Under the pieces are notes generated by a model, which was not told where the DNA came from, did not search any database, and saw only the letters and a list, made by a program, of their open reading frames with translations. Positions 12,056 to 31,696 of a stretch of 64,000 nt of DNA are shown here, piece after piece (position 1 is the first letter of the stretch; each line of letters opens with the position of its first letter). The position numbers and the translations under genes were made by a program. The DNA comes from an uncultured bacterium (GTDB lineage: Bacteria; Acidobacteriota; Thermoanaerobaculia; Multivoradales; JAHZIX01). Location of the stretch: positions 160,001 through 224,000 of the forward strand of contig CBDUPA010000010.1 of assembly GCA_965368975.1 (NCBI GenBank), in the 5' to 3' direction.

Positions 12056-12094
12056 AAGGCCGGCCAGATCGTTGGATCTGCCGGCCTTCTCTTT
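12056..12094 (+). terminator. Intrinsic terminator after copy 1
   Basis: aaggccggccagatc-gttg-gatctgccggcctt then ctcttt. Confidence 0.65.
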
Positions 12095-12245
12095 GCCTCG
12101 GCCCCTCCTGGCAGTCAGATCTGCCACCAGTGGTGCGAAGTTCTTCTATAGCTACCCCCGGGGCGCTCGGCCCCTCCTAGCTTTCGCCGTGAGCTATCCA
12201 GCTCTCGCGGAGGAGCCATCTTGATCTATAAGGAGACCCTTTACC

Positions 12246-13967
12246 ATGCAGCTACAACCCGTCCCCTCATCGCGCCAAAGCGTCTTACCCCTGACTCTCT
12301 GCGCTCTTCTCGCGCTGGCGATCTTCGCCACCCCAGTCTCCGCGGCTGAAACGATCGCTGAATTCAACGCCGAGGGCTCCATGCTGATCTTCGAGCCGGC
12401 AATGGAGTACGAAAGCGTCACGCTCAGCGTACGCGGCCCCAAGCTCACATTCACCGAAGACGCCTACGCCAGCGGTAAGAGCTTCGCCTGGGATGCCTTC
12501 GATGCCGAAGGTCGTGCACGGCCTGACGGCGCCTATACCTTCGAACTCCGCGTCACCCCGATCATCGACCCCGAAGCCAAGGACATGCTCGCTGACGCCC
12601 GAGCCAAGGGAAACGAAGCGGAGGTCTTCGTGGCCCTGTGCGAGGAAGGCCGCGTGCCGGAAGGCCCCATCACCCAGAACGGGTACTTCCAGCTCAGCCG
12701 CGGCAACGTGATTCTCAGCTTCGATACCGAGAAGAACAGTGACCTGGACGATCCCCAAAGCCGCGTCGATCGCGAGGCCCGGCAAGGTATCACGGACTCA
12801 CCCGACAAGCAGTTGATCACTGGCGACCTGACGGTGCGCAACAGCCTGTGCATCGGCTTCGACTGCCTACACCCCGAGAGCTTCAGTTTCGACACCGTAC
12901 GCCTGAAGGAGAACAACCTGCGTATCCACTTCGACGATACGTCCACCGTAGGCTCCTTCCCCAGGACTGACTGGCGCATCCAGATCAACGACAGCGCCAA
13001 TGGCGGCGGCTCTTACTTCGGAGTCGTCGACGCCTCGGCAAACCGGCGCTCGTTCTCCATCGAGGCCAACGCTCCGTCCCACTCGCTGTACGTCGACGAC
13101 GGCGGCCGCCTCGGTCTTGGCACCTCGACACCAGTGGTCGACATCCACGCCGTGTCCGGCAATACGCCAACCTTGCGCCTGGAGCAGAACGGTTCGTCCG
13201 GGTTCGCACCGCAAACCTGGGACGTGGCGGGTAACGAAACCAGTTTCTTCATTCGCGACGCCACCAACGGCTCAACGCTGCCTTTCCGCATCCGCCCAGG
13301 CGCTGGTAGCCAGTCCCTGGTCATCGACCAGGATGGAGACATCGGCGTCGGCACTCTGTCGCCCAGCGAGGACATCCACGTCCGGCGTAGCGGCGTACCG
13401 ATCGGCGTCAAGCTAGAGAACAGCGCCGATGGACGAGACTGGTCATTCAAACTCAGCGGCAGCGGCTTTGCCATCAACGAGGAGGCCGAAGCCTCGACGC
13501 TGCTGCTGCGCGACAGTGGCGAGATGCGGGTTGGCAACAACGGCGCCGAAGAATTCGTGGTGCGTGCCAACGGCGACACGGAGATCGACGGCAACCTGGA
13601 TGTCGATGGTGACATCACCGCCACCGGTACCATCTCCGACCGCAACCGCAAGCAGCAGATCGTCGAGGTCGATGGTGCCGACGTACTGGCCAAGGTGCTG
13701 GCCCTGCCCGTATCCACCTGGGTCTACAACCACCAAACCGAAGTCCGCCACATCGGCCCGATGGCCCAGGACTTCCACGCCGCCTTCGGACTCGGCACCG
13801 AGCGCTCGATCGGCCTGACCGATCTCGGTGGCCTGTCCCTGGCCGCGATCCAGGAGCTGAACGAGCAGTTCGAGCAGAGGCTCGAAGCCAAGGACGCACA
13901 GATCGACGAGATGCAGCAGCGCCTCGAAGTGCTGGAAGCGGCCTTGCTGCAACTACAACAACAGTAA
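12246..13967 (+). CDS. Secreted fibre-like protein with S74 chaperone domain, copy 2
   Basis: Paralog of copy 1; signal peptide; 'SDRNRK', 'RHIGPMAQDF'. Confidence 0.8.
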   Translation: MQLQPVPSSRQSVLPLTLCALLALAIFATPVSAAETIAEFNAEGSMLIFEPAMEYESVTLSVRGPKLTFTEDAYASGKSFAWDAFDAEGRARPDGAYTFELRVTPIIDPEAKDMLADARAKGNEAEVFVALCEEGRVPEGPITQNGYFQLSRGNVILSFDTEKNSDLDDPQSRVDREARQGITDSPDKQLITGDLTVRNSLCIGFDCLHPESFSFDTVRLKENNLRIHFDDTSTVGSFPRTDWRIQINDSANGGGSYFGVVDASANRRSFSIEANAPSHSLYVDDGGRLGLGTSTPVVDIHAVSGNTPTLRLEQNGSSGFAPQTWDVAGNETSFFIRDATNGSTLPFRIRPGAGSQSLVIDQDGDIGVGTLSPSEDIHVRRSGVPIGVKLENSADGRDWSFKLSGSGFAINEEAEASTLLLRDSGEMRVGNNGAEEFVVRANGDTEIDGNLDVDGDITATGTISDRNRKQQIVEVDGADVLAKVLALPVSTWVYNHQTEVRHIGPMAQDFHAAFGLGTERSIGLTDLGGLSLAAIQELNEQFEQRLEAKDAQIDEMQQRLEVLEAALLQLQQQ

Positions 13968-14008
13968 GGAAACTCATCCTTCCACACGGCGGCGAAAGCC
14001 GTACGAGC

Positions 14009-14045
14009 AAGGCCGGCTCGATCTTCGGATCCAGCCGGCTTTTTC
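14009..14045 (+). terminator. Intrinsic terminator after copy 2
   Basis: ggccggctcgatc-ttcg-gatccagccggc then ttttt. Confidence 0.7.
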
Positions 14046-14137
14046 TTGGCTCGTCGGCTGTCAGAGCTGTGACCTCAGGAGCGAACTCCAAGCGTCTGTA
14101 CATCTCTCTACACCTCACCTCAATGGAGGATCTTCCT

Positions 14138-15907
14138 ATGCAGCCGACTTGTTTCCGTACCTGGCAGCGCACCTGCACGCCCCTGCTGGCGCTCGCCCTC
14201 GCCGTACTCCCCTGGGCCACGTCTCCTGCCCTCGCCGACGACGATGTGGCCCGCGTCACCGCCGAGAGTTCCGTACTGGTCTTCGAGCCAAGCATGAGCT
14301 ACGACAGCGTCGTGCTCAGCGTCAGTGGCCCCAAACTCACCCGCACCGAGACTATGGTCGCCGGCGGCAAGGGCTTCATCTGGGACGTCTTCGACACCCA
14401 GGGCCAGCCCCGCCCCGATGGCATCTACACCTATGAACTCCGCGTCAATCCCGTGATCGACGCGGAAGCACGCAACATGCTCGCCGACGCCCGCGTCAAG
14501 GGCAACGAGGAAGAGGTCTTCCTGGCTCTCTGTGCTGAAGGACGCGTGCCCGACGGTGCCATCTCGCAGAGCGGCTATTTCCTGGTCTCCAAGAGCGCAA
14601 TCGTGCTCGACGCCGAGAGCGAGGAAAAGAGCGCCGATGCCGACAGCAACGACGAACGAATCGCTCGCGGTGATGCCGGCTTCGAGACCTCACCCGCGAA
14701 CCCAGACAAGCAGCTGATCACGGGTGATTTGACTGTGCGCCACAGCCTGTGCGTGGGCACTGACTGCCTGCATCCCGAGGCCTTCGGTTTCGACACCGTG
14801 CGCCTCAAAGAGAACAATCTGCGTATCCACTTCGACGATACGTCCGCCAACAACTTCCCGAGCAACGACTGGCGTGTTCAGATCAATGATAGTGCCAACG
14901 GTGGCGGCTCCTACTACTCGGTGGTCGACGCCACCGCCGGTCGTCGCAACTTCACCATCGAGGCCGGCGCTCCCAGCCACGCCCTCTACGTAGACAGCAG
15001 CGGCGACGCGGGCTTCGGCACCTCGACACCGGTCGTGGATCTCCACGTCGTCGACGGCGATTCGCCGACGCTGCGCTTGGAGCAGAACGCCTCGTCCGGC
15101 TTCCAGCCGCAAACCTGGGACCTGGCCGGGAACGAGACCAGCTTCTTCATTCGCGACGCCACCAACGGCTCGACCCTGCCCTTCCGGATTCGGCCGGGCG
15201 CGGCCAGCCAGGCCTTGGTCATCGATACCGACAGCGACATCGGCCTCGGAACCCTGTCTCCCAGCGAAGACCTCCACATCGTGCGCAGCGCGGTGCCAAT
15301 CGGCGTCAAGCTGGAAAACAGTGCCGATGGCCGAGACTGGTCTTTCAAGCTCAGCGGCAGCGGCTTCGCGATCAACGAAGAGGCTGAAGCTTCCACCCTG
15401 CTTCTGCGGGATAGTGGTGAGATGCGCGTCGGCAACAACGGCGCCGAGGAGTTCGTGGTGCGCGCCAATGGCGACACCGAAATCGATGGCGACCTCGATG
15501 TCGACGGCAACATCTCGGCCACCGGCATGATCTCCGACCGCCACCGCAAGGCCGAGTTCGCCGAAGTCGACGGCAGCGAAGTCCTGGAGCAGGTGCTGGC
15601 TCTGCCGGTCACCACCTGGATCTACAAGGATCGCGAGGGTGTACGCCACATCGGCCCGATGGCGCAGGATCTCCACGCTACTTTCGGACTGGGCACTGAG
15701 GAATCGATCGGCCTGGGCGACTTGGGCGGCCTGTCGCTAGCGGCGATCCAGCAGCTCCATCGCGACTTCGAGCGCCAGCTCGAGAACAAGGACCAAGAAC
15801 TCCAGCAGCTGCGCGCCGAGAGCGACCAGCTGCGGGCCGAGAGCACCGCCATGCAGACGCGTCTGGCAGCGCTCGAGGCAGCTCTGCTGTCTCTGCAGCA
15901 GAACTGA
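14138..15907 (+). CDS. Secreted fibre-like protein with S74 chaperone domain, copy 3
   Basis: GGAGGA RBS; signal peptide; 'SDRHRK', 'RHIGPMAQDL'. Confidence 0.8.
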   Translation: MQPTCFRTWQRTCTPLLALALAVLPWATSPALADDDVARVTAESSVLVFEPSMSYDSVVLSVSGPKLTRTETMVAGGKGFIWDVFDTQGQPRPDGIYTYELRVNPVIDAEARNMLADARVKGNEEEVFLALCAEGRVPDGAISQSGYFLVSKSAIVLDAESEEKSADADSNDERIARGDAGFETSPANPDKQLITGDLTVRHSLCVGTDCLHPEAFGFDTVRLKENNLRIHFDDTSANNFPSNDWRVQINDSANGGGSYYSVVDATAGRRNFTIEAGAPSHALYVDSSGDAGFGTSTPVVDLHVVDGDSPTLRLEQNASSGFQPQTWDLAGNETSFFIRDATNGSTLPFRIRPGAASQALVIDTDSDIGLGTLSPSEDLHIVRSAVPIGVKLENSADGRDWSFKLSGSGFAINEEAEASTLLLRDSGEMRVGNNGAEEFVVRANGDTEIDGDLDVDGNISATGMISDRHRKAEFAEVDGSEVLEQVLALPVTTWIYKDREGVRHIGPMAQDLHATFGLGTEESIGLGDLGGLSLAAIQQLHRDFERQLENKDQELQQLRAESDQLRAESTAMQTRLAALEAALLSLQQN

Positions 15908-19283: not shown

Positions 19284-20372
19284 ATGGAAGGTCACCCTCT
19301 CCGAGAGCTCACTGTCCGTGGCTTCAAGTCGCTGCGCGATCAGAAGATCGAATTCCACCCCTTGAACATCCTGATCGGCGCCAACGGTTCCGGCAAGTCG
19401 AACTTCATCGAAGTCTTCCGACTTTTGCATGCCCTAGAGCAGAATCGACTCCGGAGCTACACGCGCGAAGCGGGAGGCGCAGATTCGCTCTTGCACCATG
19501 GCGGCAAGGTCACCGAACAGATCGAGATCGCGGCATGGTTTGGTCCCAATGGCTACGCATGCACGCTGCAACCAGACCCGGACGATCTATTCTTCTTCTC
19601 GGAGGAAGTGACCTTCTTCCACGATACGAGTTACCTCGAGCCCTACGACAACTATCTAGGCAGCGCGCACCAAGAAAGCCGCCTCGGCACCACAGGAATC
19701 GACAAGTACATCCGCTCTTCCTTCAAGAGCTGGCAGCTCTACCACTTCCACGATGTCGGGCGCACCGCGCACGTCAAGAAGACCTGCAACGTCAACGACA
19801 ACCAGTTTCTGCGTCCGGATGCCGCCAATCTCGCGGCCTTCCTACTCGCCCTGCGCGAGAACTTCCCGGACGAATATCGCAACATCGTCGACACCATCCG
19901 CTTGGCTGCCCCCTTCTTCGACGACTTCATACTGGAACCGGTGCGGGAAAAGCCGGACACGCTGCGACTGGAGTGGCGCGAACGCGATTCCGAGAAGTAC
20001 TTCAACGCTCACGATCTCTCTGACGGTACGCTGCGCTTCATTTGCATCGCTACATTACTGATGCAGCCACGTGAGCTGCTGCCATCCATGATCTTGCTCG
20101 ACGAGCCCGAACTCGGTCTACATCCGTACGCCATCGCACTGCTCGCCGACTTACTGAGTAGTGCCTCTGAGAGTACAAGGGTCCTTGCCGCGACACAGAG
20201 CGTCAACCTGATCGACCACCTGGAGTTGGAGCACCTCATCGTGGCAGACCGCGAAGGCGGCGAGACAAGTCTCCATCGTCCGGATCCCGACTTCCTTCGC
20301 ACCTGGCTGAGCGAGTATTCGCTGGGCCAGGTATGGGAAAAGAATCTGATGGGTGGGCGACCGGGGCGATGA
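19284..20372 (+). CDS. ABC-type (AAA_21-like) ATPase
   Basis: GFKS, Walker A GANGSGKSN, signature LSDGTLR, Walker B LLDEPELGLHP, ATQS. Confidence 0.88.
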   Translation: MEGHPLRELTVRGFKSLRDQKIEFHPLNILIGANGSGKSNFIEVFRLLHALEQNRLRSYTREAGGADSLLHHGGKVTEQIEIAAWFGPNGYACTLQPDPDDLFFFSEEVTFFHDTSYLEPYDNYLGSAHQESRLGTTGIDKYIRSSFKSWQLYHFHDVGRTAHVKKTCNVNDNQFLRPDAANLAAFLLALRENFPDEYRNIVDTIRLAAPFFDDFILEPVREKPDTLRLEWRERDSEKYFNAHDLSDGTLRFICIATLLMQPRELLPSMILLDEPELGLHPYAIALLADLLSSASESTRVLAATQSVNLIDHLELEHLIVADREGGETSLHRPDPDFLRTWLSEYSLGQVWEKNLMGGRPGR

Positions 20373-21028
20373 AGCGCGGCTACATCCTGGTCGAGGGACA
20401 GACCGAGGAAGCCTTCGTCAAGGAACTCCTTTCGCCCAGCCTCCTTCCGCAACTGTCCCTGCAACCGATCGTCATCACCACTAGCCGCGATCGAAAGGGT
20501 CTCAAATACCGCGGTGGCTCGACGAGTTTCGCCAAGATCAAGAGCCAGGTACACGCACTGCTAGGAGATCGGGCAGCTGCCGTGGTGACGACGATGATCG
20601 ACCTTTACGCCCTCCCCGAGGACTTTCCACAACTAGCTCAGGCTCCCAACAAGGCTTACGAGCGGGTCGAGTTCCTGGAAGCACAGTTCACGGCTTCGAT
20701 CAGCGATCATAGATTCGTGCCGTTCCTCATGCTGCACGAATTCGAAGCCCTGCTCCTCGCTTCACCTCAGCACCTGCAACAGAGGTTTCCCGAGCGCTCA
20801 GTGGAGCGCACAACTCAGACCTGGCTACAAAACGTAGAGTCCCCGGAAGAGATCAACGGTGGTCGGGATACACATCCTTCTGCCCGACTGCAAGACCTCG
20901 TACCAGAGTTTCGCAAGACACGTGATGGTCCTCTGATCGTGCAGCGAGTCGGCTTGAGAAAGCTACGGCAAAGCTGCCCTCACCTCGAACGCCGGCTCAC
21001 ACAGCTGGAAGCCCTCGGCGAGAAATAG
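20369..21028 (+). CDS. DUF4276-like (TOPRIM-fold) protein
   Basis: ATGA overlap with the ATPase; 'ILVEGQTEE', 'TTMIDLY', 'HEFEALL', 'PEEIN...HPS', 'CPH'. Confidence 0.75.
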   Translation: MKRGYILVEGQTEEAFVKELLSPSLLPQLSLQPIVITTSRDRKGLKYRGGSTSFAKIKSQVHALLGDRAAAVVTTMIDLYALPEDFPQLAQAPNKAYERVEFLEAQFTASISDHRFVPFLMLHEFEALLLASPQHLQQRFPERSVERTTQTWLQNVESPEEINGGRDTHPSARLQDLVPEFRKTRDGPLIVQRVGLRKLRQSCPHLERRLTQLEALGEK

Positions 21029-21495: not shown

Positions 21496-23889
21496 CTAGA
21501 TCAAGCGCGGGCGGAAGCCGTCGATGGTCTCCTCCACCAGCAGGAGATGGAAACCGCGGCGGGCCCCGAGCCTCACGAATCCCTGGTACCCCATGGACTT
21601 GTCGAGACCCAGCAGGCGGTTGCCCAAGCCCTGGTGCAGCTGGCCGCGATAGGCCTCGACGACCTCGGTGTCGAAGCTCGGAGCGATCAGAAAGGCTCCT
21701 CCGACGTCCCCGCGCTGCGTACGGGCTTGTTTGGCTTGCTTGATCGTCTCGAGCTCCGCGTGGAAGGTCGCGGTATCCATGCGCGGCAGGCGCCGAGCGA
21801 CGTGCAGCAGCTTGCCCTCTTCGTCTTGGGTCGCCAGGTCGAAGTAGTCACGCTCGGCACTGCCGGGGCGCTCCAGCTGGGTGTACAGACGCGCTTGTCG
21901 CACCAGCAACAGCCAGTCACCGAGATACTTCCAGCCGTCGGCTTGCTGACGCTCCACCAGTAGCCGCGGCAAGTCTTCGAGCATCCAGCGCAGGAACCGC
22001 GCCATGGGCCCTTGCTCGACTCCGGCCGGCCCGACGCTCGCCCGCCGTGGCGGCTGGAAGGCGAGGCGAAACAGCGGTGACGCCTCGGAGGTGAGACCGC
22101 CGGTCGCCTCGAAGGTACCGGTGAGCGTCGACGACGAGCCACTACCGCTACCGGACATCGCGGCGGCGGCGCGCTCGGGGGTCGCAACGACGTCCAGATC
22201 TGCGAAGGCCAGGGGATACCACGACGCCGGCGGCTCGAAACGCGGCGGCGTGACGCACGCGGTGATTCCCGGGGTGCGCAGCCAAGACGCCAGATTGTCC
22301 GGCTGCGATGCTGTCTGAGCTGTTGTTGTCAGAGTTGTTGCCGTCGGAGTCGGCATCGTCGGCCAGGCGCCGCTGAGCAGTACCATCTCGGTGCGCGCAC
22401 CGTCGAGCAGGATCAACCCGAAGGCGTCCTTGGCCAGCTGACCTCCGTTCAAGTGCACGACACCGCGAAAGCCCTGTCTCTGCAACTTACCAGCAAAGGC
22501 GGCCAGGTTGACCACCTCTGAATCCAGGTCTCGGTGCAGCGGCTCAGCCGGACGAAGCGCGCTGGCCAGCAAGCACACGAAAGCCTCGCCGTGGTCTGGC
22601 GGCGCCGCGTGCAGGCGCACCTCGCCGCGGTCCGGCAGCTCACCCTCGGGCTGAGCCTGGCCGCTCTCGACATCGACGACAGTCAACAAGACGCCTCTCT
22701 CGACCAGCAACAGGTACTTGTCGAAACGGGCAGCACCAGCGAAGGCAGGCGCGTGAAGAGGGGCTTCCAGGAGCTTCTTCAGGAAGTCGTCGCGCTCTTG
22801 GACGCCGGCAACCTGCACCGGCCACGATTCGACAAGGGCGCGAACCGCCTGGAAGCGGTTGCGTGCCTGTGGCGCCGAGAAGAAGTCAACCGGTACCGCC
22901 AGCACACGCGAAGGACTCGCCCCGTCCACCTCGGCAGAGCCCACCAGGCTGCCCTCAGCAACAGGACCTGCAGCCCCCGTGCGCGGCACCGCCCCAGCCA
23001 CGGAGGTGTCGTGATCTTGGCGGTCAAACCCCACGAGCCCCAAGCGCTGGCGCAGGTCGAAGGCCATCTCGCGCGCGGTGGCAAAGCGTGCCTCCCGGTC
23101 CTTGGCCAGGGCCTTGTGGACCCACGGGTCGAGCGCGGCCGGCAGGCGCGGGTCCCGCTCGGTCACCGGCACCGGTGGCCGAGCGAACATGGCGTTGATC
23201 AACTGTGCCAGGTTGTCGCCATCCCAAGGAAGCTGGCGGGAGACCAGCTGGTAGAAGACGACCGCCGCCGCGAATAAATCCGCGCGCCCGTCGACCGGCT
23301 CGCCCTGCAATTGCTCGGGCGAAGCGTAGCGCGGTGTCGCCAGGACCGAACCGGCCACGGTCTCGACCAGCGATCGGCCCTGCAGCCGAGCAATGCCAAA
23401 GTCGGTGACCTTGAGCTGCCCGCTGTCGAGCAGCATCAGGTTGGAGGGCTTGATATCCCGGTGCACCACACCCGCTGTATGCGCCGCCTCCAAGACGTCC
23501 AGGAGATCGAACAGGTGAGCCGCGGCGCGTGCCGGCGGCAAGGGCGCGTCGGCGTCGATCAGGGCTTCGAACGTGCGGCCTTCCAGCCACTCCATGACGA
23601 TGTAGAGCTGCCCGCTCACCTTGTCGACACGGTGGATCGTCGCTACCCCCGGATGGGATAGAGCTGCCGCCGCGCGCGCCTCCTGCAGGAAGCGCTTCGA
23701 GGCCTCGTCATCGCCGCCACCGCTGCTGCCTTGCTCGGCATCCGGCTTCAGGAACTTGATCGCCACCGGCCGATCGAGATTGATGTCGATCGCCCGGTAC
23801 ACCACTCCCATCGCTCCGGCGCCGGCCTGGCGTTCGATGCGATAGGGAAATTCCCGGCTGGCGCTGGGAAGCGAAGCTGCGGACGTCAT
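21496..23889 (-). CDS. Hanks-type Ser/Thr protein kinase with a long cytoplasmic C-terminal region
   Basis: GAGAMGVVY, VAIK, HRDIKPSN, DFGIA, YASPEQ, RADLF; no TM segment. Confidence 0.9.
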   Translation of the reverse strand: MTSAASLPSASREFPYRIERQAGAGAMGVVYRAIDINLDRPVAIKFLKPDAEQGSSGGGDDEASKRFLQEARAAAALSHPGVATIHRVDKVSGQLYIVMEWLEGRTFEALIDADAPLPPARAAAHLFDLLDVLEAAHTAGVVHRDIKPSNLMLLDSGQLKVTDFGIARLQGRSLVETVAGSVLATPRYASPEQLQGEPVDGRADLFAAAVVFYQLVSRQLPWDGDNLAQLINAMFARPPVPVTERDPRLPAALDPWVHKALAKDREARFATAREMAFDLRQRLGLVGFDRQDHDTSVAGAVPRTGAAGPVAEGSLVGSAEVDGASPSRVLAVPVDFFSAPQARNRFQAVRALVESWPVQVAGVQERDDFLKKLLEAPLHAPAFAGAARFDKYLLLVERGVLLTVVDVESGQAQPEGELPDRGEVRLHAAPPDHGEAFVCLLASALRPAEPLHRDLDSEVVNLAAFAGKLQRQGFRGVVHLNGGQLAKDAFGLILLDGARTEMVLLSGAWPTMPTPTATTLTTTAQTASQPDNLASWLRTPGITACVTPPRFEPPASWYPLAFADLDVVATPERAAAAMSGSGSGSSSTLTGTFEATGGLTSEASPLFRLAFQPPRRASVGPAGVEQGPMARFLRWMLEDLPRLLVERQQADGWKYLGDWLLLVRQARLYTQLERPGSAERDYFDLATQDEEGKLLHVARRLPRMDTATFHAELETIKQAKQARTQRGDVGGAFLIAPSFDTEVVEAYRGQLHQGLGNRLLGLDKSMGYQGFVRLGARRGFHLLLVEETIDGFRPRLI

Positions 23890-24125
23890 ACTCTGGGCTC
23901 CTGTTGGGCTCTTGAACTCGGCGTTCGAGGGTCTAGGGTCAACCGGACCCTCGCACAGCGAGGATTGTAGCGGGTTCCGCCCTAGGTACAATACGCGGCT
24001 AGTGCAGCAAAGGATGTGCTGCCATCTTCCCCTCTAACGAGTTTCTCGGCTATACTCCAGAGGTCTTTCGAGACACATTTTATGTTTGGGTTGTTTGAAC
24101 CCGCCGGATTTCTAGAGGACATGCC

Positions 24126-24788
24126 ATGCCCGACTCGGTCGACCCGACCGGGGAAGCGGTCGTTCGTCCACATTCCGGTGGACCCTCCCCCAGCGAGAAT
24201 CCGGCACGCCGCAGCGCGCTGACCTGGCTTTCGAGCCTCGGTCTGATCGCGGCCCTGGCGGCTGCCTACGGCACCTTCGCAGCTTTCCTGGCACGCTTCG
24301 TCTACCCCGCGCGGCCTCCGGCGAAAGGCTGGATGTACGTCACGCGCGCCTCCCGGCTCGAGAGTGGCACGTCGCTTCTCTACCGTACTCCCGCGGGCGC
24401 CACCGTCACGCTAGCGCGCAAGAAGGTAGACGCCGGCACGTTCAGCGAAAGCACCGACGACGCCTTTATCGCACTCTCCAGCACCTGCCCGCACCTCGGC
24501 TGTCAGGTCCACTGGCAACCGGTGCACGACCGCTTCTTCTGCCCCTGCCACAACGGCATCTTCGATCCGCAGGGAACCGCGATCTCCGGTCCGCCGGCGG
24601 AAGCCGGGCAATCTCTGCCACGCTATGCGCTGAAGGTCGAGGACGACCTGCTGTACATCGAAGTGCCGATGGACGAGCTGGCCATGGGGCCGGGCGAGAT
24701 CCTGGAGCCACCGCCGATGTGCCCGGGGCCGGGGCACGATCCGTGCTTGCAGCCACCGACGCTGCGCCCCCGGGTCGAGGAAGCCTGA
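24126..24788 (+). CDS. Rieske 2Fe-2S subunit of a Rieske/cytochrome b complex
   Basis: Tat-like 'RRSALTW' plus TM helix; CPHLGC and CPCHNG boxes; 'SGPP...LPRY'. Confidence 0.92.
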   Translation: MPDSVDPTGEAVVRPHSGGPSPSENPARRSALTWLSSLGLIAALAAAYGTFAAFLARFVYPARPPAKGWMYVTRASRLESGTSLLYRTPAGATVTLARKKVDAGTFSESTDDAFIALSSTCPHLGCQVHWQPVHDRFFCPCHNGIFDPQGTAISGPPAEAGQSLPRYALKVEDDLLYIEVPMDELAMGPGEILEPPPMCPGPGHDPCLQPPTLRPRVEEA

Positions 24789-24792
24789 AGCC

Positions 24793-25839
24793 ATGAAGGT
24801 CCTGACCTGGTTCCAAGATCGCCTGCCGATCTCCGGCGAACAACTGCGCGAGCTGACCAACGAACCTGTCCCCAACCACATGAAGCGCTGGTGGTTCGCG
24901 CTCGGCGGCACACCGGCCTATCTGTTCGTTGTCCAGGTCGTTACCGGCATCCTGCTCGCCATCTACTACAAGCCATCGCCGGAAACAGCCTACGAGTCGG
25001 TGCGCTACATCACCGAAGAAGCTTCTTACGGCTGGTTGCTTCGCGGCATCCACAAGTGGGGCGCGACGCTGATGATCGCAGCGGTGATCCTGCACCAGAT
25101 GCGGGTCTTCTTCACCGGCGCCTACCGCAAGCCGCGCGAGATCAACTGGATCATCGGCATGAGCTTGCTGTCGTGCACACTGGTTCTCGGCTTCACCGGC
25201 TACTGCCTGGTGTACGAACAGCTGAGTTACTGGGGCGCGGCCGTGGGCGCCAACATCGCCGGCAGCGTGCCGTTCGTCGGCGAACTGGCCAAGGAACTCC
25301 TGCTCGGCGGTGAGGTCTACAACGCCAACACCCTGCCGCGCTTCTTCGTGCTACACGCGGCCGTGCTGCCCGGCATCCTGGTGCTCTTGATCCTGATCCA
25401 CATCGCGATCATCCGCATGCAGGGCGTCAGTGAGCTGCGCTTCGCTGACCAGCCCGAGGACAAGCCGAAGCACTTCAACTTCTTCCCCGATCACATGATG
25501 AGCGAGCTGATGATCGGCCTGGTGCTGATGATCCTGCTCACGTTCTTGGCGACCGTCGCGCCGCCCATCCTGGGCCCCCGCGCCGATCCACTGACCACGC
25601 CCGAGATCATCAAGCCGGAGTGGTTCTTCTACGTCACCTTCCGCTGGCTGAAACTGTTCTCCGGCACCGTGGCCATCCTCTCGACCGGCTTCATCGTCTT
25701 CGTCATGTTCGCCTGGCCCTTCATCGACCAGCAGATCCGCCGCCGTACGCGCTATCAGGAAGCCAGCGTGTGGATCGGCATCCTGGCTGTCCTGACACTC
25801 ATCGGCCTGACCCTATGGGAGGCCATCGCGGCCCACTGA
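24793..25839 (+). CDS. Cytochrome b (b6-like N-part fused to a subunit IV-like part)
   Basis: Four heme-b His (IHKW, LHQM, LHAA, IHIA), GAYRKPREINW, Qo motif KPEWF. Confidence 0.92.
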   Translation: MKVLTWFQDRLPISGEQLRELTNEPVPNHMKRWWFALGGTPAYLFVVQVVTGILLAIYYKPSPETAYESVRYITEEASYGWLLRGIHKWGATLMIAAVILHQMRVFFTGAYRKPREINWIIGMSLLSCTLVLGFTGYCLVYEQLSYWGAAVGANIAGSVPFVGELAKELLLGGEVYNANTLPRFFVLHAAVLPGILVLLILIHIAIIRMQGVSELRFADQPEDKPKHFNFFPDHMMSELMIGLVLMILLTFLATVAPPILGPRADPLTTPEIIKPEWFFYVTFRWLKLFSGTVAILSTGFIVFVMFAWPFIDQQIRRRTRYQEASVWIGILAVLTLIGLTLWEAIAAH

Positions 25840-25857
25840 GGCCCGTGAGGAAAACTC

Positions 25858-27495
25858 ATGACCCTAGAGCAAAAGCGTTGGATTCTCATTGCCCTGTCCC
25901 TGCTGTTTCTAGTCTCGCTGCTGATCGTCCAGAAACTGGAGGTCGAGCGGCGGCTGGCCGAGGCAGGAGTGACGTCTCATGCGGTAGCCGTTCCTGCTTC
26001 GTCGCGTCAGTGCGTCGACTGCCACGCTAAGTCGAACCCCGGCATCGCCGACCACTGGCGCGGTAGCCCGCACGCGGTGGCCGGCGTCGCCTGCGTCGAG
26101 TGTCACCAAGCCCAGACCGGGGACGCCGATGGCTTCGACCATTACGGAGTGCACATCGCCACCGTCGTGACGCCGCGCGACTGCGCCACCTGCCACGTCG
26201 ACGTCGGTGCCGAGTTCGAGCGCAGCCATCACGCGGCCGCTGGCAACATCCTGGCCTCGCTGGACAACTTCCTGGCCGAGACGGTCGAGGGCGCGCGCGC
26301 GCCGTTCAACCCACACAGTCCGACGCCAGGCATGGTCGTCGACCAGGTCAACGGCTTGGCCAGTGCCTTCTCGGGCTGCCAACAGTGCCACGGCAGCAAG
26401 GTCGCGCTGGTCGCCGTCGACGGTGAACCGATCACTGTCGACGACCTGCAGCCGGGACCGGACGGTCAGCCGACCAACCTCGACGCCGTCGGACGCATCG
26501 CACGAGACGACAGTGGACGCCCCCGGTTCCATCCGGGAACCTGGCCCAACACCGGTATCGGCCGGCTCAACCTGGATGGCTCGCGCGGCTCCTGCAGCGC
26601 CTGCCACAGTCGTCACGACTTCTCGCCGCGGCGCGCCCGCCAGCCCGAGAACTGCGGCAAGTGTCACCTGGGTCCGGACCATCCACAGAAGGAAATCTAC
26701 GAAGAATCCAAGCATGGCGTCGCCTATCGTGATCTGCGCGAGCACATGAATTTGGACGCCCCGGACTGGGTGCTGGGCGAGGACTACAGTCAGGCACCGA
26801 CCTGCGCCACCTGCCACATGTCCGGCCACAGCCGCAACGGCGGCAAGGTGACCCACGATCCCGGCGAGCGCATCTCGTGGACCAACCGGCCACCGATCAG
26901 CCTGGTCATGGACACCGACGTCAACGGCAGCATCGTCACCAGCCTGGACCCGGCCGAGCGGCAAGCGCTGATCGTAGATACAGCCCAGCAGAAGCGTCAG
27001 CGCATGAAGGACGTCTGCTCACACTGCCACACGCCGGACTACGTCAACTCCTTCTATCGCCAGTACGACGACCTGGTGGTGCTGTACAACGAGAAGTTCG
27101 CCAAGTCGGGACAGGCGATCATCAACGCGCTCAAGAACGAGGGCCTGCTGACACCGACCCAGTTCGACGAAGAGATCGAGTGGACCTGGTTCTACCTATG
27201 GCATCACGAGGGGCGCAGGGCACGCCACGGTGCCTCGATGATGGCACCGGACTACACCCACTGGCACGGCATGTTCGAGGTCGCCGAACGCTTCTACATG
27301 GAGCTGATTCCACAGGCGCGCGAGCTGATCTCGCACGGACGCGACCACGGTCAGGCCGCTGCTGCGGCGCGCGTCGAGACGGTGGTCAACGGCATCCTCG
27401 CTCGTCCCGAGCACACCTGGTTCGAAGAGGGTGCGGCCGAGCAAATGGCAGCCATTCGGGCCGCCATGGAAGAACGTTACGGGCAGGGAGACTGA
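25858..27495 (+). CDS. Membrane-anchored octaheme cytochrome c, hydroxylamine oxidoreductase (HAO) family
   Basis: N-terminal TM; 8 CxxCH (CVDCH, CVECH, CATCH, CQQCH, CSACH, CGKCH, CATCH, CSHCH); 'WPNTGIGRLNLDG', 'HLGPDHPQ..IY.ESKHG', 'WHHEGRRAR..MMAPDYTHWHG'. Confidence 0.87.
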   Translation: MTLEQKRWILIALSLLFLVSLLIVQKLEVERRLAEAGVTSHAVAVPASSRQCVDCHAKSNPGIADHWRGSPHAVAGVACVECHQAQTGDADGFDHYGVHIATVVTPRDCATCHVDVGAEFERSHHAAAGNILASLDNFLAETVEGARAPFNPHSPTPGMVVDQVNGLASAFSGCQQCHGSKVALVAVDGEPITVDDLQPGPDGQPTNLDAVGRIARDDSGRPRFHPGTWPNTGIGRLNLDGSRGSCSACHSRHDFSPRRARQPENCGKCHLGPDHPQKEIYEESKHGVAYRDLREHMNLDAPDWVLGEDYSQAPTCATCHMSGHSRNGGKVTHDPGERISWTNRPPISLVMDTDVNGSIVTSLDPAERQALIVDTAQQKRQRMKDVCSHCHTPDYVNSFYRQYDDLVVLYNEKFAKSGQAIINALKNEGLLTPTQFDEEIEWTWFYLWHHEGRRARHGASMMAPDYTHWHGMFEVAERFYMELIPQARELISHGRDHGQAAAAARVETVVNGILARPEHTWFEEGAAEQMAAIRAAMEERYGQGD

Positions 27496-27504
27496 GGTGA
27501 GATC

Positions 27505-29862
27505 ATGAGTATCGATCGACGTAGCTTCCTGAAAGTCTTGGGATCCGCCGTCCCGGTTGCCGCACTCTCGTGCCGCGACCAGGAAGAAGTCGAACGGCTG
27601 GCAGCGCAAGACGGCAGCGCGCAAATCTCCGGCGACGGCGTCACCTGGGGCAAGGCACCGTGCCGCTACTGCGGTACCGGCTGTGGTGTCGAAGTGGCGG
27701 TCAAGGACCAACGCGTAGTCGCCGTGCGCGGCGACGAGAAGAGCCCGGTCAACCGCGGCTTGCTGTGCGTCAAGGGCTATCACTTGCCAGGCTTCCTCTA
27801 CGGCGAAGACCGCTTGCTCTACCCCATGCGCCGTCTCCCAGGCGGCAAGACCGAGCGCTTGAGCTGGGAGCAGGCCCTGGACCTGATCGCCGACAAGTTC
27901 CAAGGCGCCCTCGACCAGCACGGTCCGGACTCCGTGGCGGTCTACGGCTCCGGCCAGTGGACGGTCTTCGACGGCTATGCCGCCCTCAAGTGGGTCAAGG
28001 GCGGCATGCGCAGCAACAATCTCGACCCCAATGCCCGCCTGTGTATGGCCAGCGCCGTCATGGGCTTCGTCACACAGTTCCAGAGCGACGAGCCAATGGG
28101 CTGCTACGACGATTTCGAGCATGGTGACGACTTCGTGCTCTGGGGCAACAACATGGCCGAGATGCACCCGGTCCTGTTCAGCCGCATCCTCGACACGCAG
28201 CGCAAGCGCCCGGGCGTGCGCATCATCGACATCGCGACGCGGCGCACACCGACCAGCCAGTACGCGGACCTCTACGTCGAATTCCGTCCCGGCACCGACC
28301 TGGCCCTGGCCAACGGCATCCTGCACTTGCTGATCGCCAATGGCAAAGTCGACCAGGCGTTCGTGCGTGAGAACCTGGTTTTCCGCCGGGGCATCGAGGA
28401 TCTCGACGAGATCGGGTACGGCTGCTACGGCGACAACGCCGATCGCTACACCTTCAAGGACCGTGCTGAGGAAGCCTCCTTCGACGAGTTGAAGGCCTTC
28501 CTGGACGACTACACCCCGGCACGCGTGGCCGAGATCAGCGGCGTTCCCGAGGCACAGATCCGTGCCCTGGCCGACCTGTACGGCGACCGCGGGCGCGGCA
28601 CCGTCAGCCTTTGGTGCATGGGAGTCAACCAGCACACCCGTGGCACCTGGATGAACAATCTGATCACCGACCTGCATCTGGTGACCGGCAAGATCAGCCG
28701 TCCGGGGAACAACCCCTTCAGCCTCACGGGTCAGCCCTCGGCCTGCGGCACGGTGCGCGAGGTCGGCACCCTGGCCAACCGCCTACCGGCCGACATGGTC
28801 GTCAACAAGCCCGAGCACCGTGCCGAAGTGGAGAAGGCCTGGGGCCTCGAACCCGGCAGCCTGAATCCGACTCCCGGCTACCACGCCGTCGACATGTTCC
28901 GGGCCCTCCAACGCGGCGACGTCAAAGCGATGTGGATCCAGACCACCAACCCCTGGGTCAGCCTGCCCAACCTGCACCGCTTCGACCGTCAGCCCGGCGA
29001 CGGTCGCTTCGTCGTCGTCAGCGACATCTACCCGACGCCCACCACCGCCGTCGCCGATCTGGTGCTGCCATCCGCCGCTTGGGTCGAGCGCGAAGGCGTC
29101 TTCGGCAACAGTGAGCGGCGCACACAGCAGTGGAACCAGCTGGTGCCGCCGCCGGGGGAAGCCACGGAAGACGCCTGGCAGATGATCGAGGTCGCCAAGC
29201 GCATGGGCATGGGGCACCTGTTCCCGTGGTCCGAAGACGAGTGGCACGAGAAGATGTGGGAAGAGTACCGGGGCTTCACCGTCAACAAGGGCAAGGATCT
29301 GGCCACCTACACGCAGCTGCGCGAATCGCGGGGGCTGCGCTGGCCGGTGGTCGATGGCCAGGAAACCCTCTACCGCTACGGTGCCGGCTACGACCCCTAT
29401 GTCGAAAAGGACGAGGGCGTGCACTTCTACAAAGCCAAAGGCTACGGCCAGCGCGCCGCCGTCTGGCTGCGCCCGTACCACCCACCAGCCGAAGTGCCCG
29501 ACGACGAGTACCCCTTCTGGCTGTGCACCGGCCGCATCCTCGAGCACTGGCACACGGGCTCGATGACTCGCCGCGTGCCGCAGTTGCATCGCGCCGCGCC
29601 GGAAGCCTACGCCGAACTCAACCGCGCCGACGCCATTGAGCTCGGCGTCCAGCACGGTGGTCGCATTCGCCTGGTCAGCCGCCGCGGCTCCATGGAGCTA
29701 CGCGCCCACATCGACCAGCGTGGCCAGCCCCCCCGTGGCAGCGTCTTCGTGCCGTTCTTCGACGAGAGTCTGAAGATCAACGAGCTGACCCTTGACGCCA
29801 TGGACAACATCAGCAAGGAGCCGGACTACAAGAAGTGCGCCGTCCGGGTAGAAAGAGCATGA
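27505..29862 (+). CDS. napA: Periplasmic nitrate reductase catalytic subunit
   Basis: Tat signal DRRSFLK; CRYCGTGC...C 4Fe-4S motif; NARLCMASA; DEPMGCYDD; NMAEMHP; GQPSACG; EHWH; PDYKKCAV. Confidence 0.93.
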   Translation: MSIDRRSFLKVLGSAVPVAALSCRDQEEVERLAAQDGSAQISGDGVTWGKAPCRYCGTGCGVEVAVKDQRVVAVRGDEKSPVNRGLLCVKGYHLPGFLYGEDRLLYPMRRLPGGKTERLSWEQALDLIADKFQGALDQHGPDSVAVYGSGQWTVFDGYAALKWVKGGMRSNNLDPNARLCMASAVMGFVTQFQSDEPMGCYDDFEHGDDFVLWGNNMAEMHPVLFSRILDTQRKRPGVRIIDIATRRTPTSQYADLYVEFRPGTDLALANGILHLLIANGKVDQAFVRENLVFRRGIEDLDEIGYGCYGDNADRYTFKDRAEEASFDELKAFLDDYTPARVAEISGVPEAQIRALADLYGDRGRGTVSLWCMGVNQHTRGTWMNNLITDLHLVTGKISRPGNNPFSLTGQPSACGTVREVGTLANRLPADMVVNKPEHRAEVEKAWGLEPGSLNPTPGYHAVDMFRALQRGDVKAMWIQTTNPWVSLPNLHRFDRQPGDGRFVVVSDIYPTPTTAVADLVLPSAAWVEREGVFGNSERRTQQWNQLVPPPGEATEDAWQMIEVAKRMGMGHLFPWSEDEWHEKMWEEYRGFTVNKGKDLATYTQLRESRGLRWPVVDGQETLYRYGAGYDPYVEKDEGVHFYKAKGYGQRAAVWLRPYHPPAEVPDDEYPFWLCTGRILEHWHTGSMTRRVPQLHRAAPEAYAELNRADAIELGVQHGGRIRLVSRRGSMELRAHIDQRGQPPRGSVFVPFFDESLKINELTLDAMDNISKEPDYKKCAVRVERA

Positions 29863-30473
29863 AGATCCAGCCGGCGCGTCGCGTCGTGCTCGTGGTCGCC
29901 CTGGCCGGCCTTTTCGGTTGCGACGCCGGCTCCGAATGGGTAGCGGTACCCGGCGGCGACGGAGTCGTCAAGTCGGCCAGCGACGTGCGCGACGCCCGTC
30001 GCGCCTATGACGGAGCACCACCGGTGATCCCGCACGAACCCCTCGGTGCTCCCTGCACCTCCTGCCACAACCAGGAAGGTCTGGCCGTCGTCGATCTCGG
30101 CTACGCCCCGCCGTCGCCCCACGGCCAGACCGCGGGCATGGGCGAGTTCGCGCGCTGCCAGCAATGCCACGTCTTCCAAGCCGAAGTCGGTCCGTGGCGC
30201 GGAAGTCGTTTCGCCAGTCTGCCGGTGCATACGACTCCGCGTGCCGGTACCCGAGCCTATGCCGGTGCCCCCCCCACCCTGCCACACCCGGCCTTCGGCC
30301 ACGAGAACTGCCTGGCCTGCCACAGTGGACCGGCGGCGCGGGAAGAGATCCGCACCACCCACCCGGAGCGTCGACGCTGCCAGCAGTGTCACGTCCCCCA
30401 GGCCTCGACGGCCACCGTCTCCATGACCCCCTTCACCACTGCCGCTGAACCTTCAGGAGCCTCCGCGCTATGA
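29859..30473 (+). CDS. napB: NapB-like cytochrome c lipoprotein with two tandem NapB modules (4 hemes)
   Basis: Lipobox LFGC; RAYDGAPPVIPH...CTSCH...CQQCHV followed by RAYAGAPPTLPH...CLACH...CQQCHVPQ. Confidence 0.75.
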   Translation: MKIQPARRVVLVVALAGLFGCDAGSEWVAVPGGDGVVKSASDVRDARRAYDGAPPVIPHEPLGAPCTSCHNQEGLAVVDLGYAPPSPHGQTAGMGEFARCQQCHVFQAEVGPWRGSRFASLPVHTTPRAGTRAYAGAPPTLPHPAFGHENCLACHSGPAAREEIRTTHPERRRCQQCHVPQASTATVSMTPFTTAAEPSGASAL

Positions 30474-31696
30474 GCCGCATCGCTTGCCTCTGCACCCTGC
30501 TCTCTGCTTCTCTGCTCCTCGCCCTCCTGCTCCACGCTCCGTCCGCGGCCGCCCAGGACGCTCCGCGCTTCTTCCAGGACGGCAAGGTCTCCCTCGACCT
30601 GCGCTACCGCGTCGAGTCGGTCGACGATGATCGCCAGGCCAAAGACGCCTTCGCCTCCACGTTGCGCACCGCTCTCGGTCTGCGCAGTGCCGAAGTGAAT
30701 GGCTTCAGCGTCTACCTGGAAGCCGAGAATGTCACGGCCCTAGGAAATGAAGACGGTTATCGCAATGCTGGTGCCGGCAGCCTGAACAATGGCGTCAGCG
30801 GCCGGCCCGTCGTGGCCGATCCGGAATTGACCGAGGTCAACCAAGCGTACGGCCGCTATCAACGCGAGGGCCTGCAACTGACTCTGGGCCGCCAGGAGAT
30901 CTTGCTCGGCGATCAACGCTATGTCGGCGCGGTCGGCTGGCGTCAGAACCACCAGAGCTTCGACGCTCTACGTCTCGAGTGGAAGGCCAGTGATCGGTTC
31001 CGTCTCGACTACAGCTTCGTCGACAACACCAATCGCATCTTCGGCGACAACAAGCAGATGGCCAGCCACCTGCTCTACCTTCCCGTGCAACTGACAGCTG
31101 ACGTTCAACTCACCGCCTATTCTTTTCTCCTCGACTACGATCGGCCCGCTGACGCGCACCTCTCCACGGCCACCTTCGGGGCCGAGTTGAGCGGCAAGCT
31201 GGCTGCTGGTCAGCTACGTTTCGAGGCCGAGTATGCCAGCCAGCAGGACCACGCCGACAACCCGAATCGCGTGCGGGCGGACTACCTGAAACTGAGCGCC
31301 GGCACATCGCTGGGCTCAGGAACTGGAGGAGTCAACCTCGACGTCGCCTACGAAGTCCTGGAGGGTAGCTTCGAAGACGGTCGTTTCCTGACACCCTTGG
31401 CGACCTTACACAAGTTCAACGGCTGGGCCGACCTCTTCCTGGTGACACCACCCCAGGGCCTGGAAGACCTCAGCATCAGTCTGGCCGGTAAGCAGGGACA
31501 AGTCGCCTGGAGACTCACCTGGCACGATTTCCAGGCCGAGAGCACCAGCATCGACTACGGCCAGGAAATCGACGTCCTGCTCACCTACAAAGCGCCATGG
31601 GGACAGACCTTCGGCGTCAAGGGAATGTTCTACGACGCCGACGATTTCGCGGCGGACATCGCGAAGGTAGCGGTGTGGTCAGGGTTCCGGTTCTGA
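30470..31696 (+). CDS. Outer-membrane beta-barrel, alginate-export (AlgE-like) family
   Basis: Signal peptide; 'LRYRVE', 'NQAY', 'GRQEI...QRYVG..GWRQN.QSFD', 'LATLHKFNGWAD'; C-terminal Phe. Confidence 0.75.
   Translation: MSRIACLCTLLSASLLLALLLHAPSAAAQDAPRFFQDGKVSLDLRYRVESVDDDRQAKDAFASTLRTALGLRSAEVNGFSVYLEAENVTALGNEDGYRNAGAGSLNNGVSGRPVVADPELTEVNQAYGRYQREGLQLTLGRQEILLGDQRYVGAVGWRQNHQSFDALRLEWKASDRFRLDYSFVDNTNRIFGDNKQMASHLLYLPVQLTADVQLTAYSFLLDYDRPADAHLSTATFGAELSGKLAAGQLRFEAEYASQQDHADNPNRVRADYLKLSAGTSLGSGTGGVNLDVAYEVLEGSFEDGRFLTPLATLHKFNGWADLFLVTPPQGLEDLSISLAGKQGQVAWRLTWHDFQAESTSIDYGQEIDVLLTYKAPWGQTFGVKGMFYDADDFAADIAKVAVWSGFRF

Follow-up and report, generated by a model that had tools for sequence, protein, structure and literature searches.

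In the classical form of DNRA, the dissimilatory pathway by which nitrate is reduced to ammonium, NapAB operates with NapC or NapGH and NrfA operates with NrfH or NrfBCD, and the quinol dehydrogenases of this route are regarded as non-electrogenic (PMC6195509). This study describes a candidate operon located at positions 24126-31696 of a 64,000-nucleotide stretch (the window) of contig CBDUPA010000010.1, which belongs to an uncultured acidobacterium (assembly GCA_965368975.1). The operon encodes a Rieske protein, a cytochrome b, an octaheme cytochrome c of the hydroxylamine oxidoreductase (HAO) family, hereafter called OHC, a periplasmic-type nitrate reductase NapA, a NapB-like protein, and an outer-membrane porin. 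As in the classical route, the expected path leads from nitrate through nitrite to ammonium in the periplasm, but the NrfA, NapC-type equivalogs, NapH, and NapD of that route were not found in this genome.

Within the literature covered by a full-text search, a comparable arrangement was described only for Caldithrix abyssi and for anammox bacteria. The nap cluster of C. abyssi (Cabys_2564-2556) comprises napM, napA, napG, napH, Rieske, cytochrome b, and epsilon-Hao genes, and its authors proposed in 2017 an NrfA-free pathway in which the Rieske/cytochrome b pair supplies electrons to Nap, to Hao, or to both, possibly building up proton-motive force (PMC5317091). Both systems unite Nap, a Rieske/cytochrome b pair without cytochrome c1, and an octaheme Hao lacking the cross-linking tyrosine (Tyr) in one locus. 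Caldithrix, which is cultured and grows by nitrate reduction, lacks NrfA and NapC (PMC5317091), and neither NrfA nor a typical NapC was found in the present genome. The Caldithrix cluster differs in having napGH, a tetraheme NapM instead of NapB, nap genes in first position, and a Hao described as periplasmic (PMC5317091). Compared with that cluster by published description and not by sequence, the present operon has no napGH or napM, carries an anchored Hao-type gene directly after cytochrome b, and adds a tandem NapB-like lipoprotein and a porin.

In anammox bacteria, the R/b-3 complex resembles the present one in that the HAO-like octaheme protein Kuste4574, thought to reduce nitrite, is a component of a Rieske/cytochrome b complex (PMC12485887). 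It differs by its extra subunits (kuste4569-4574), the absence of Nap from the description given, the expectation of NO as product, and a Kuste4574 activity that the authors state to be unproven; moreover, the hosts examined here are not anammox bacteria (PMC12485887). In Campylobacter jejuni, genetics show that Nap is fed by the Rieske/cytochrome bc complex QcrABC, which is electrogenic with an H+/2e- ratio of 2 (PMC6195509). The Campylobacterota thus share with this operon a Nap that is supplied through Rieske/cytochrome bc without NapC, as well as Tyr-less HAOs that reduce nitrite and hydroxylamine, whereas their Qcr has its own c-type subunit, takes part in oxygen respiration as well, and has its genes at a distance from nap and hao (PMC6195509, PMC8042395). 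The complex considered here appears dedicated, and the HAO-type protein itself would be its c subunit.

The nearest solved relative of OHC, IhOCC of Ignicoccus hospitalis (Protein Data Bank (PDB) entry 4qo5), also has no cross-linking Tyr at the aligned position, but it has Asp-Val in place of Asp-His and no N-terminal anchor helix in the aligned chain; it reportedly reduces nitrite and hydroxylamine. Trichlorobacter ammonificans is said to be an ammonifier without NrfA whose Nap-TaNiR locus has napA directly followed by the gene of an octaheme nitrite reductase; this TaNiR octaheme reportedly belongs to the NrfA/ONR lineage and not to HAO, with NapGH, and not Rieske/cytochrome b, as its presumed electron donor. 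Clusters of nap and hao that lack the Rieske/cytochrome b pair are described in the papers on Deferribacter and Nautilia. A paper on Oslofjord tunnel metagenome-assembled genomes (MAGs) lists hao and napAB in genomes that are among our loci, and the operon is not discussed in the portion of that paper used here.

On the basis of these comparisons, the idea of an NrfA-free combination of Rieske/cytochrome b, epsilon-Hao, and nap (Caldithrix), the HAO-bearing R/b-3 complex (anammox), and Qcr-dependent Nap are already known. The new elements are the minimal form without napC, napGH, napM, or napD, the HAO-type protein as the putative anchored c subunit, a NapB-like lipoprotein built as a tandem with four hemes, a porin linked to the module, the occurrence of the Rieske-cytochrome b-OHC triad in many phyla, and a distribution of the triad that complements that of NrfA. 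We propose, with a probability of roughly 55%, that the operon constitutes an NrfA-free, proton-motive module for nitrate and nitrite ammonification in one membrane-bound respiratory unit. A first-pass annotation of the window had read the locus as a candidate energy-conserving, NrfA-independent DNRA route. Gene content, the lack of other routes in the genome, synteny, the near-exclusion of NrfA, and a complex model all favor that reading; its novelty was overstated, given the 2017 Caldithrix proposal, the Qcr-fed Nap of C. jejuni, and a triad that mostly occurs without napAB.

The six genes of the operon are as follows.

24126-24788, + strand: Rieske [2Fe-2S] subunit of 220 amino acids (aa), with an RR-containing N-terminus and one transmembrane helix (PF00355, 40.5 bits).
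24793-25839, + strand: cytochrome b of 348 aa (Cytochrome_B, 170 bits, and Cytochrom_B_C, 38.7 bits).
25858-27495, + strand: octaheme HAO-family cytochrome c (OHC) of 545 aa, with eight CxxCH motifs and an N-terminal transmembrane anchor (PF13447, 82.2 bits).
27505-29862, + strand: NapA of the short type, 785 aa (NF010055, 952.4 bits).
29859-30473, + strand: tetraheme tandem NapB-like lipoprotein (NapB4), with four CxxCH motifs and the lipobox LFGC followed by Asp at +2.
30470-31696, + strand: Alginate_exp outer-membrane beta-barrel of 408 aa with a signal peptide (PF13372, 44.1 bits).

The open reading frame (ORF) listing places all six genes on the + strand in tight packing. The intergenic gaps are, in order, 4, 18, and 9 nucleotides (nt), followed by two ATGA overlaps read directly from the sequence, so that the coupling initially noted was confirmed by both the ORFs and the sequence. 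No napC, napGH, napD, or nrfA gene was found in the operon, as the first-pass annotation had stated, with napF and napG not searched as separate families.

A relatives scan covering one genome per species identified at least 597 species genomes with a confirmed OHC relative, and the triad recurred across at least seven phyla. Gene order was counted in the best 80 loci, and the occurrence of napA was counted in the 75 loci with at least 1 kb of downstream sequence. The results revealed that cytochrome b lies directly upstream of OHC on the same strand in 79 of the 80 loci and the Rieske gene in 74. Four of the six Rieske misses were located at contig ends, one (L017) was unexplained, and one (L035) had a divergent pair on the opposite strand. 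Downstream of OHC, napA was present in 31 of the 75 loci, within approximately 80 nt in 29 of them and further off or overlapping in two, and a NapB-like gene followed napA in all 26 loci extending far enough. Alginate_exp porins, forming two clusters, were found beside the module in 17 of the 80 loci, some of which had no napAB. NarL-like regulators (seven loci), NarQ/X-like kinases (four), and Rrf2 regulators (five) also occurred among the 80, all scoring under the equivalog cut-offs.

The phylum labels of the 80 loci were Planctomycetota (33), Acidobacteriota (22), Gemmatimonadota (9), Binatota (4), Myxococcota (3), Chloroflexota (2), and Eiseniibacteriota (1), with six loci unlabelled. The nearest relatives of OHC were labelled Acidobacteriota, in agreement with the initial assignment of the window to a probable acidobacterium. 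Loci with linked napAB carried five labels: Acidobacteriota, Gemmatimonadota, Planctomycetota, Eiseniibacteriota, and, in one MAG, Myxococcota. On a FastTree tree of OHC, napAB linkage required 14-15 changes, of which at least eight were forced by well-supported branches. This pattern suggests either that the linkage has been made or lost many times or that the cassette moves between lineages. No cultured carrier was found among the 160 records listed (two overlapping lists of 80 loci), all of which were titled MAG or uncultured, and a search for sister-clade loci with P0005 found nothing.

Two further features of the relatives' loci were recorded. In four of the closest relatives, a divergent heme-copper-oxidase-like gene lies beside the cassette (L002, 13272-15002; L005, 13447-15150; L009, 4512-6161; L019, 14784-16505). 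The COX1-like product matched PF00115 at 299 bits and the NCBIfam oxidase models at 51-105 bits versus cut-offs of at least 670; it may be an unusual NO or O2 reductase, and it is without counterpart in the window's genome. In a Planctomyces-labelled MAG, the octaheme gene (L078, 6028-7632) contains one in-frame stop in the matched stretch, for which a sequencing error, a pseudogene, or recoding are possible explanations.

The distribution of NrfA was compared with that of HAO-like genes in 301 genomes of the window's phylum, with HAO-like genes defined by E <=1e-30 and orthologs of OHC by E <1e-200. An HAO-like gene was present in 70 genomes and NrfA in 83, each tally including one genome flagged as unpublished (G024 and G150, respectively), and only two genomes (G091 and G242) had both. 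NrfA was thus found in 2 of the 70 genomes with an HAO-like gene versus 81 of the 231 without. The exclusion also held inside f8, f28, and f30, the three families with both genes among the 30 itemised (f2-f31). Among the 16 ortholog-bearing genomes, which include the window's own, NapA was present in seven, and coordinates place napA adjacent to the octaheme gene in five of these and in the window's own genome. NirK scored above its cut-off in none of 15 ortholog-bearing genomes. In one genome of the sample, the same short NapA type (approximately 785 aa) is encoded directly beside NrfA (G209 C82:805-3967). The near-exclusion of NrfA and HAO, together with this NapA-NrfA pairing, argues in favor of a common slot that is taken either by NrfA or by an HAO-type enzyme. 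In another genome, a short NapA adjoins a paralogous HAO-like gene with 55% identity to the C-terminal half (G273 C26:46074-49493). A separate observation concerns a multicopper protein encoded approximately 3.4 kb downstream of a cassette's napA (G260 C3:551065-551802), which gave a sub-cut-off NirK match of 126.9 versus 296.3 bits.

The window's genome (7.1 Mb, 99.3% complete) was then considered as a whole. Profile searches of it found no NrfA, NapD, NirK, NarG, full-length NirB, siroheme NIR_SIR, or Hcp. As a NirS candidate, the sole Cytochrom_D1 match was rejected, being a 355-aa YNCE-like propeller. The NapH equivalog was not found (TIGR02163, best 55.6 bits versus a cut-off of 213; napG and napF were not searched), and neither was a typical NapC, PF03264 matching only inside a 507-aa protein with five hemes and a 540-aa protein with ten. 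The 14 other frames with at least three CxxCH motifs gave generic c7/c554/MtrC-type or TPR matches, and none was NrfA-, ONR-, or Otr-like by Pfam. The nosZ search was uninformative, its control having given no match. The genome holds one HAO-family gene and one cytochrome b, the latter being the sole PF00033 match, and both are located in the operon. Judged by gene content, OHC is the only recognisable candidate in the genome for handling the nitrite that NapA would make.

The single heme-copper oxidase of the genome is of the caa3 type and is encoded in a COX2/COX3/COX4 operon with ACIII directly upstream; no NorB-type enzyme was found, this oxidase being the sole heme-copper-superfamily gene. 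A role of the present operon as the organism's general complex III was ruled out by the position of ACIII directly upstream of the caa3 oxidase operon. Because aerobic respiration has this separate ACIII-caa3 chain, the Rieske/cytochrome b pair of the operon is not needed for it. Two other regions of the genome were noted. A cluster of large multiheme cytochromes with 10, 8, and 5 CxxCH motifs, c7/c554/MtrC-like, may be an extracellular electron-transfer set (G000 C1:477364-487243, - strand), and a molybdopterin oxidoreductase frame with one in-frame TGA may encode a selenocysteine enzyme such as formate dehydrogenase (G000 C2:52690-53934, - strand; loci L087/L089).

OHC matched PF13447 well above the cut-off of 21.9 bits, which places it in the HAO family, and its eight CxxCH motifs are kept in 80 of 81 orthologs. 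It has one strong hydrophobic helix, at the N-terminus (residues approximately 9-27), and no other, and this helix is conserved in relatives; the initial description of a membrane-anchored octaheme HAO-family protein in the slot of cytochrome c1 therefore stands. The nearest solved relative, IhOCC, was matched over nearly the full length with an E value of 3.1e-41 by single sequence and 5.5e-106 by family profile. It was followed in the profile search by NeHAO (1.6e-49), Kustc0458 (2.6e-45), and then the anammox HOX and HDH. A Foldseek search with the AlphaFold model of OHC returned HAO-family proteins as all of its top 10 PDB matches, the same ten as by sequence, with IhOCC at rank 1. The AlphaFold2 monomer (pLDDT 79.8) superposed poorly on solved HAOs (TM-score 0.19-0.34, root-mean-square deviation approximately 19-22 Å), presumably because the model lacks hemes, and it was used for family ranking and not for residue geometry.

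In the alignment, Asp274-His275 of OHC correspond to the catalytic-pocket pair Asp267-His268 of NeHAO and are invariant in all 81 orthologs. The cross-linking Tyr467 of NeHAO aligns by profile to His468 of OHC, a position that holds His in 79 of the 81 orthologs and Thr in IhOCC. With no Tyr at the aligned cross-link position, OHC falls, by alignment, outside the oxidative P460-type HAOs and is predicted to have no heme-Tyr cross-link. The Tyr-less epsilon-HAOs of Epsilonproteobacteria reduce nitrite and hydroxylamine in vitro (PMC8042395). The solved proteins closest to OHC, such as IhOCC and Kustc0458, belong to this reductive, Tyr-less type, for which hydroxylamine oxidation is negligible. 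Family membership predicts that OHC is a reductase but not which product it releases.

Public sources name members of the OHC cluster hydroxylamine dehydrogenase, hydroxylamine oxidoreductase, or multiheme c-type cytochrome. The first two would mean an oxidative enzyme, a type whose cross-link Tyr OHC lacks at the aligned position. These names, along with the finding that HAO active sites run in both directions in vitro (PMC8042395), could suggest that OHC acts on another substrate or in reverse, either in the detoxification of hydroxylamine or NO or in oxidation. We consider this very unlikely, for besides the missing Tyr, no ammonia-oxidation context was seen and the operon partner is a nitrate reductase. 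It is also established that Rieske/cytochrome b complexes feed electrons to their c subunit and not the reverse.

Another explanation is that OHC stops at NO, in which case the module would be a quinol:nitrite (NO-forming) reductase with Nap attached, as for Kustc0458 and as suspected for Kuste4574. In its favor, Kustc0458 (6h5l), which produces NO (PMC8042395), ranks near the top of the solved relatives and has the Asp-His pair as well, and Kuste4574 sits in the anammox Rieske/cytochrome b complex (PMC12485887). The COX1-like gene downstream in the loci of four close relatives is a possible NO reductase, and the Rrf2-family regulators near 5 of the 80 loci point in the same direction. By contrast, neither a NorB-type enzyme nor Hcp was found in the window's genome, and the near-exclusion with the ammonifying NrfA and the NapA-NrfA pairing in G209 fit a replacement of NrfA better. 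We therefore regard an NO-forming module as rather unlikely.

The Rieske subunit carries the cluster motifs CPHLGC and CPCH-N-G-I-F, and CPHLGC and CPCH were invariant in all 29 aligned sequences. The CxH...CxxH motifs and the disulfide cysteines expected of a bc-type complex are thus present. The positions that hold Ser and Tyr in bc1/b6f proteins hold Gly and Phe in all 29 sequences, a replacement that we take to mark low-potential, menaquinol-type Rieske proteins. In the cytochrome b, which has approximately seven hydrophobic segments, an N-terminal part resembling b6 is fused to a C-terminal part resembling subunit IV. Its heme-ligand histidine pairs, H87/H101 and H188/H203, are invariant and spaced as H-x13-H and H-x14-H, the b6 pattern. 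Its Qo motif is PEWF, of which P275-E276-W277 is invariant. The NCBIfam models for cytochrome b6 (224 bits) and ExtP (228 bits) both scored under their cut-offs. By its family membership, the Rieske/cytochrome b complex would be expected to translocate protons through a Q-cycle.

The complex of cytochrome b and OHC was modelled in repeated runs, as the first-pass annotation had suggested, and passed its controls with ipSAE values of 0.81, 0.82, and 0.81 versus 0.01 for the best of three controls. Of 157 solved complexes, 116 attain the ipSAE mark used, as do 2 of 215 mismatched pairs; this calibration applies only roughly to a model built with our own alignments. The runs shared at least 90% of contacts, and the partner pLDDT was at least 84. 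In the modelled interface, OHC residues 1-36, which include the anchor helix, lie on cytochrome b helices at approximately 92-108 and 323-345. The model supports the docking of the OHC anchor helix on cytochrome b.

The position of OHC in the gene slot of c1 and its modelled attachment to cytochrome b would equally suit a mere electron wire in place of c1, which would pass electrons to the NapB-like protein, NapA, and other periplasmic acceptors while nitrite is excreted; multiheme c subunits are known in Rieske/cytochrome b complexes (PMC5317091). Such a role seems unlikely to us. The Asp-His pair is invariant, and the HAO core is 63-79% identical across phyla. Furthermore, the triad persists where no napAB is linked and even in the six ortholog-bearing genomes in which neither NapA nor NarG was found, and HAO-like genes are nearly exclusive with NrfA.

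NapA scored 952.4 bits with NF010055, above the cut-off of 904, and 912.3 bits with TIGR01706, just below the cut-off of 930.55. It has a twin-arginine N-terminus (SIDRRSFLK) and the 4Fe-4S motif CRYCGTGC, and the NapA chains in the PDB matched it at E values of 1e-229 to 1.6e-242, the best being that of C. necator (3ml1_A, 1.6e-242). These features identify it as NapA, as initially annotated. The next protein, initially called NapB, proved to be different: it follows napA and resembles NapB but is, by its sequence features, not a canonical diheme NapB. It consists of two tandem NapB-like halves that are 38% identical (E 3e-9) and contains four CxxCH motifs, which were found in all 17 aligned NapB-like sequences (16 relatives and the window's own). 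Its similarity to NapB is weak, with 3ml1_B at E 3.9e-4, PF03892 at 34.9 bits for the whole protein with no single stretch passing, and NF008609 (NapB) at 24.6 bits versus a cut-off of 230. The ORF was called at 29835-30473 (212 aa), but translation probably begins at the ATG at 29859, in overlap with the napA stop. From this start, the protein has a signal of the lipoprotein type, LFGC followed by Asp at +2. A lipoprotein with Asp in that position is retained in the inner membrane in E. coli, a rule that may not hold in this phylum. None of the terms 'tetraheme NapB', 'tetrahaem NapB', and 'NapB-like tetraheme' occurred in the literature searched.

The porin matched PF13372 over residues 96-260 only, above the cut-off of 25.2 bits, and belongs to that family; its Atlas feature neighbors were Alginate_exp clusters in 30 of 30 cases, and a PDB sequence search with it gave no match. 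It is a candidate entry pore for nitrate and nitrite.

Contig C5 of the window's genome encodes the 507-aa pentaheme protein mentioned above, which has three hydrophobic (transmembrane) segments and a NapC/NirT domain (PF03264, 31.8-34.7 bits versus a cut-off of 24.1). This protein is a possible alternative quinol dehydrogenase. It may be that NapAB is a mere neighbor fed by such a quinol dehydrogenase, and that the Rieske/cytochrome b-octaheme complex acts alone on nitrite. The PF03264 match, the three hydrophobic segments, and the self-sufficiency of the triad in most relatives would be in line with this arrangement. The C5 gene is, however, not beside nap but adjoins a pyruvate:ferredoxin-oxidoreductase-like gene, and NapH-like and NapC-like equivalogs were not found in the genome. 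The 9-nt and ATGA junctions, the close spacing in 29 of 31 loci, where napA starts at most approximately 80 nt from the end of the OHC gene, and the recurrence of napA linkage on many tree branches and under five phylum labels also argue against this arrangement, which we judge to be quite unlikely.

Several points weigh against the proposal of an ammonifying module. The triad stands without napAB in 44 of the 75 loci, and of the 16 ortholog-bearing genomes, four have NarG, ten have Nap and/or Nar, and six showed neither; the module is therefore not tied to nitrate. The NrfA/HAO counts run over related genomes, so that they form a pattern and not a test and overstate independence; the 70 genomes pool several HAO-like subfamilies, only 16 carrying OHC orthologs, and NrfA occurs in 2 of those 16. 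At the active site, Tyr466 of OHC, two residues before the aligned cross-link site and aligned with Trp465 of NeHAO, is conserved in 80 of 81 orthologs and is excluded as a cross-link partner by alignment alone, a question that the heme-free AlphaFold model cannot settle. The C5 pentaheme protein, by its domain content, could also feed Nap as a quinol dehydrogenase. HAO-family enzymes are trimeric and Rieske/cytochrome b complexes dimeric, so that their symmetries do not match; the rough calibration of the complex model belongs here as well. Finally, the Asp-His pair of OHC is shared by Kustc0458, whereas IhOCC has Asp-Val, and Kustc0458, a Tyr-less Kuenenia HAO that ranks second or third among the solved relatives, yields NO from nitrite and not ammonium (PMC8042395).

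Under the proposed ammonification mechanism, a low-potential Rieske/cytochrome b complex would oxidise quinol, possibly menaquinol, at the Qo site in a Q-cycle. One electron would pass through the Rieske cluster into the heme chain of OHC, and the other would be recycled through the b hemes. OHC, as a reductive, cross-link-free HAO type, would replace cytochrome c1 and be held on cytochrome b by its N-terminal helix. Electrons of the heme chain would reach its catalytic heme, where nitrite would be reduced, most likely fully to ammonium, or alternatively they would pass to the tethered tetraheme NapB-like protein and on to NapA for the reduction of nitrate to nitrite. The porin would let nitrate and nitrite through the outer membrane. 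Charge would be separated at the Rieske/cytochrome b step, NrfA, NapC, and NapGH would be dispensed with, and the H+/2e- ratio of 2 described for C. jejuni Qcr would apply to all eight electrons. In this scheme, we infer the substrate and product, the electron exit to Nap, the coupling by a Q-cycle, the quinone type, and the role of the porin.

The surroundings of the operon comprise genes for a Ser/Thr kinase, a DoxX protein, a large amylase-like protein, and ribosomal and RNA polymerase proteins. Because these flanks are housekeeping or otherwise unrelated, the cluster stands alone as a functional island. A promoter scan gave 0 sigma-70-like sites, and the six terminator-like sites, versus 4.3 expected, included none convincing inside the operon. 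Upstream of the operon (23991-24125), a search for an FNR-like box was negative, a single short inverted repeat was present, and an alignment with seven relatives contained no conserved block. A search for sequencing runs that contain the operon, RNA runs included, listed none. The kinase gene (21496-23991, - strand) is transcribed away from the Rieske gene at a distance of 134 nt upstream of it and encodes an 831-aa Ser/Thr protein kinase with a C-terminal DUF7527. Elsewhere in the window, three paralogous ORFs of 573-612 aa stand in a row (10238-15907, + strand), and each has at its end a Peptidase_S74 (endosialidase chaperone) domain of the kind known from the tail-fibre or spike proteins of phages. 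At 19284-21028 (+ strand), an AAA_21/AAA_15 ATPase gene is followed, with a 40-nt overlap, by a DUF4276 gene, an arrangement that resembles a defence-type two-gene module.

In soils and sediments, DNRA retains nitrogen, and nrfA is the gene by which it is usually followed. If the module is an ammonifier, nitrogen retention would extend to many nrfA-less genomes, and the energy yield would exceed that of the NapC/NrfH route. The finding bears on the reading of HAO-family enzymes in metagenomes, since public sources name them hydroxylamine dehydrogenase, on the role of the HAO-bearing Rieske/cytochrome b complex in anammox bacteria, and on the ways in which a multiheme enzyme can take over from cytochrome c1. 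With its six genes and no napGH, napC, or napD, the compact form described here offers a clean test case. A broader reading, which we advance only tentatively and toward which we remain somewhat doubtful, is that the triad is a widespread and so far unrecognised proton-motive quinol:nitrite oxidoreductase that replaces NrfA in uncultured Acidobacteriota, Planctomycetota, Gemmatimonadota, and others. In approximately two-fifths of the sampled lineages, NapA would be wired on through a tethered tetraheme NapB, yielding a single membrane machine that transfers the full eight electrons needed for nitrate ammonification and conserves energy at every step. Should this broader reading be true, environmental surveys, misled by the database name hydroxylamine dehydrogenase, would take these genes for markers of nitrification and would miss a large share of DNRA potential.

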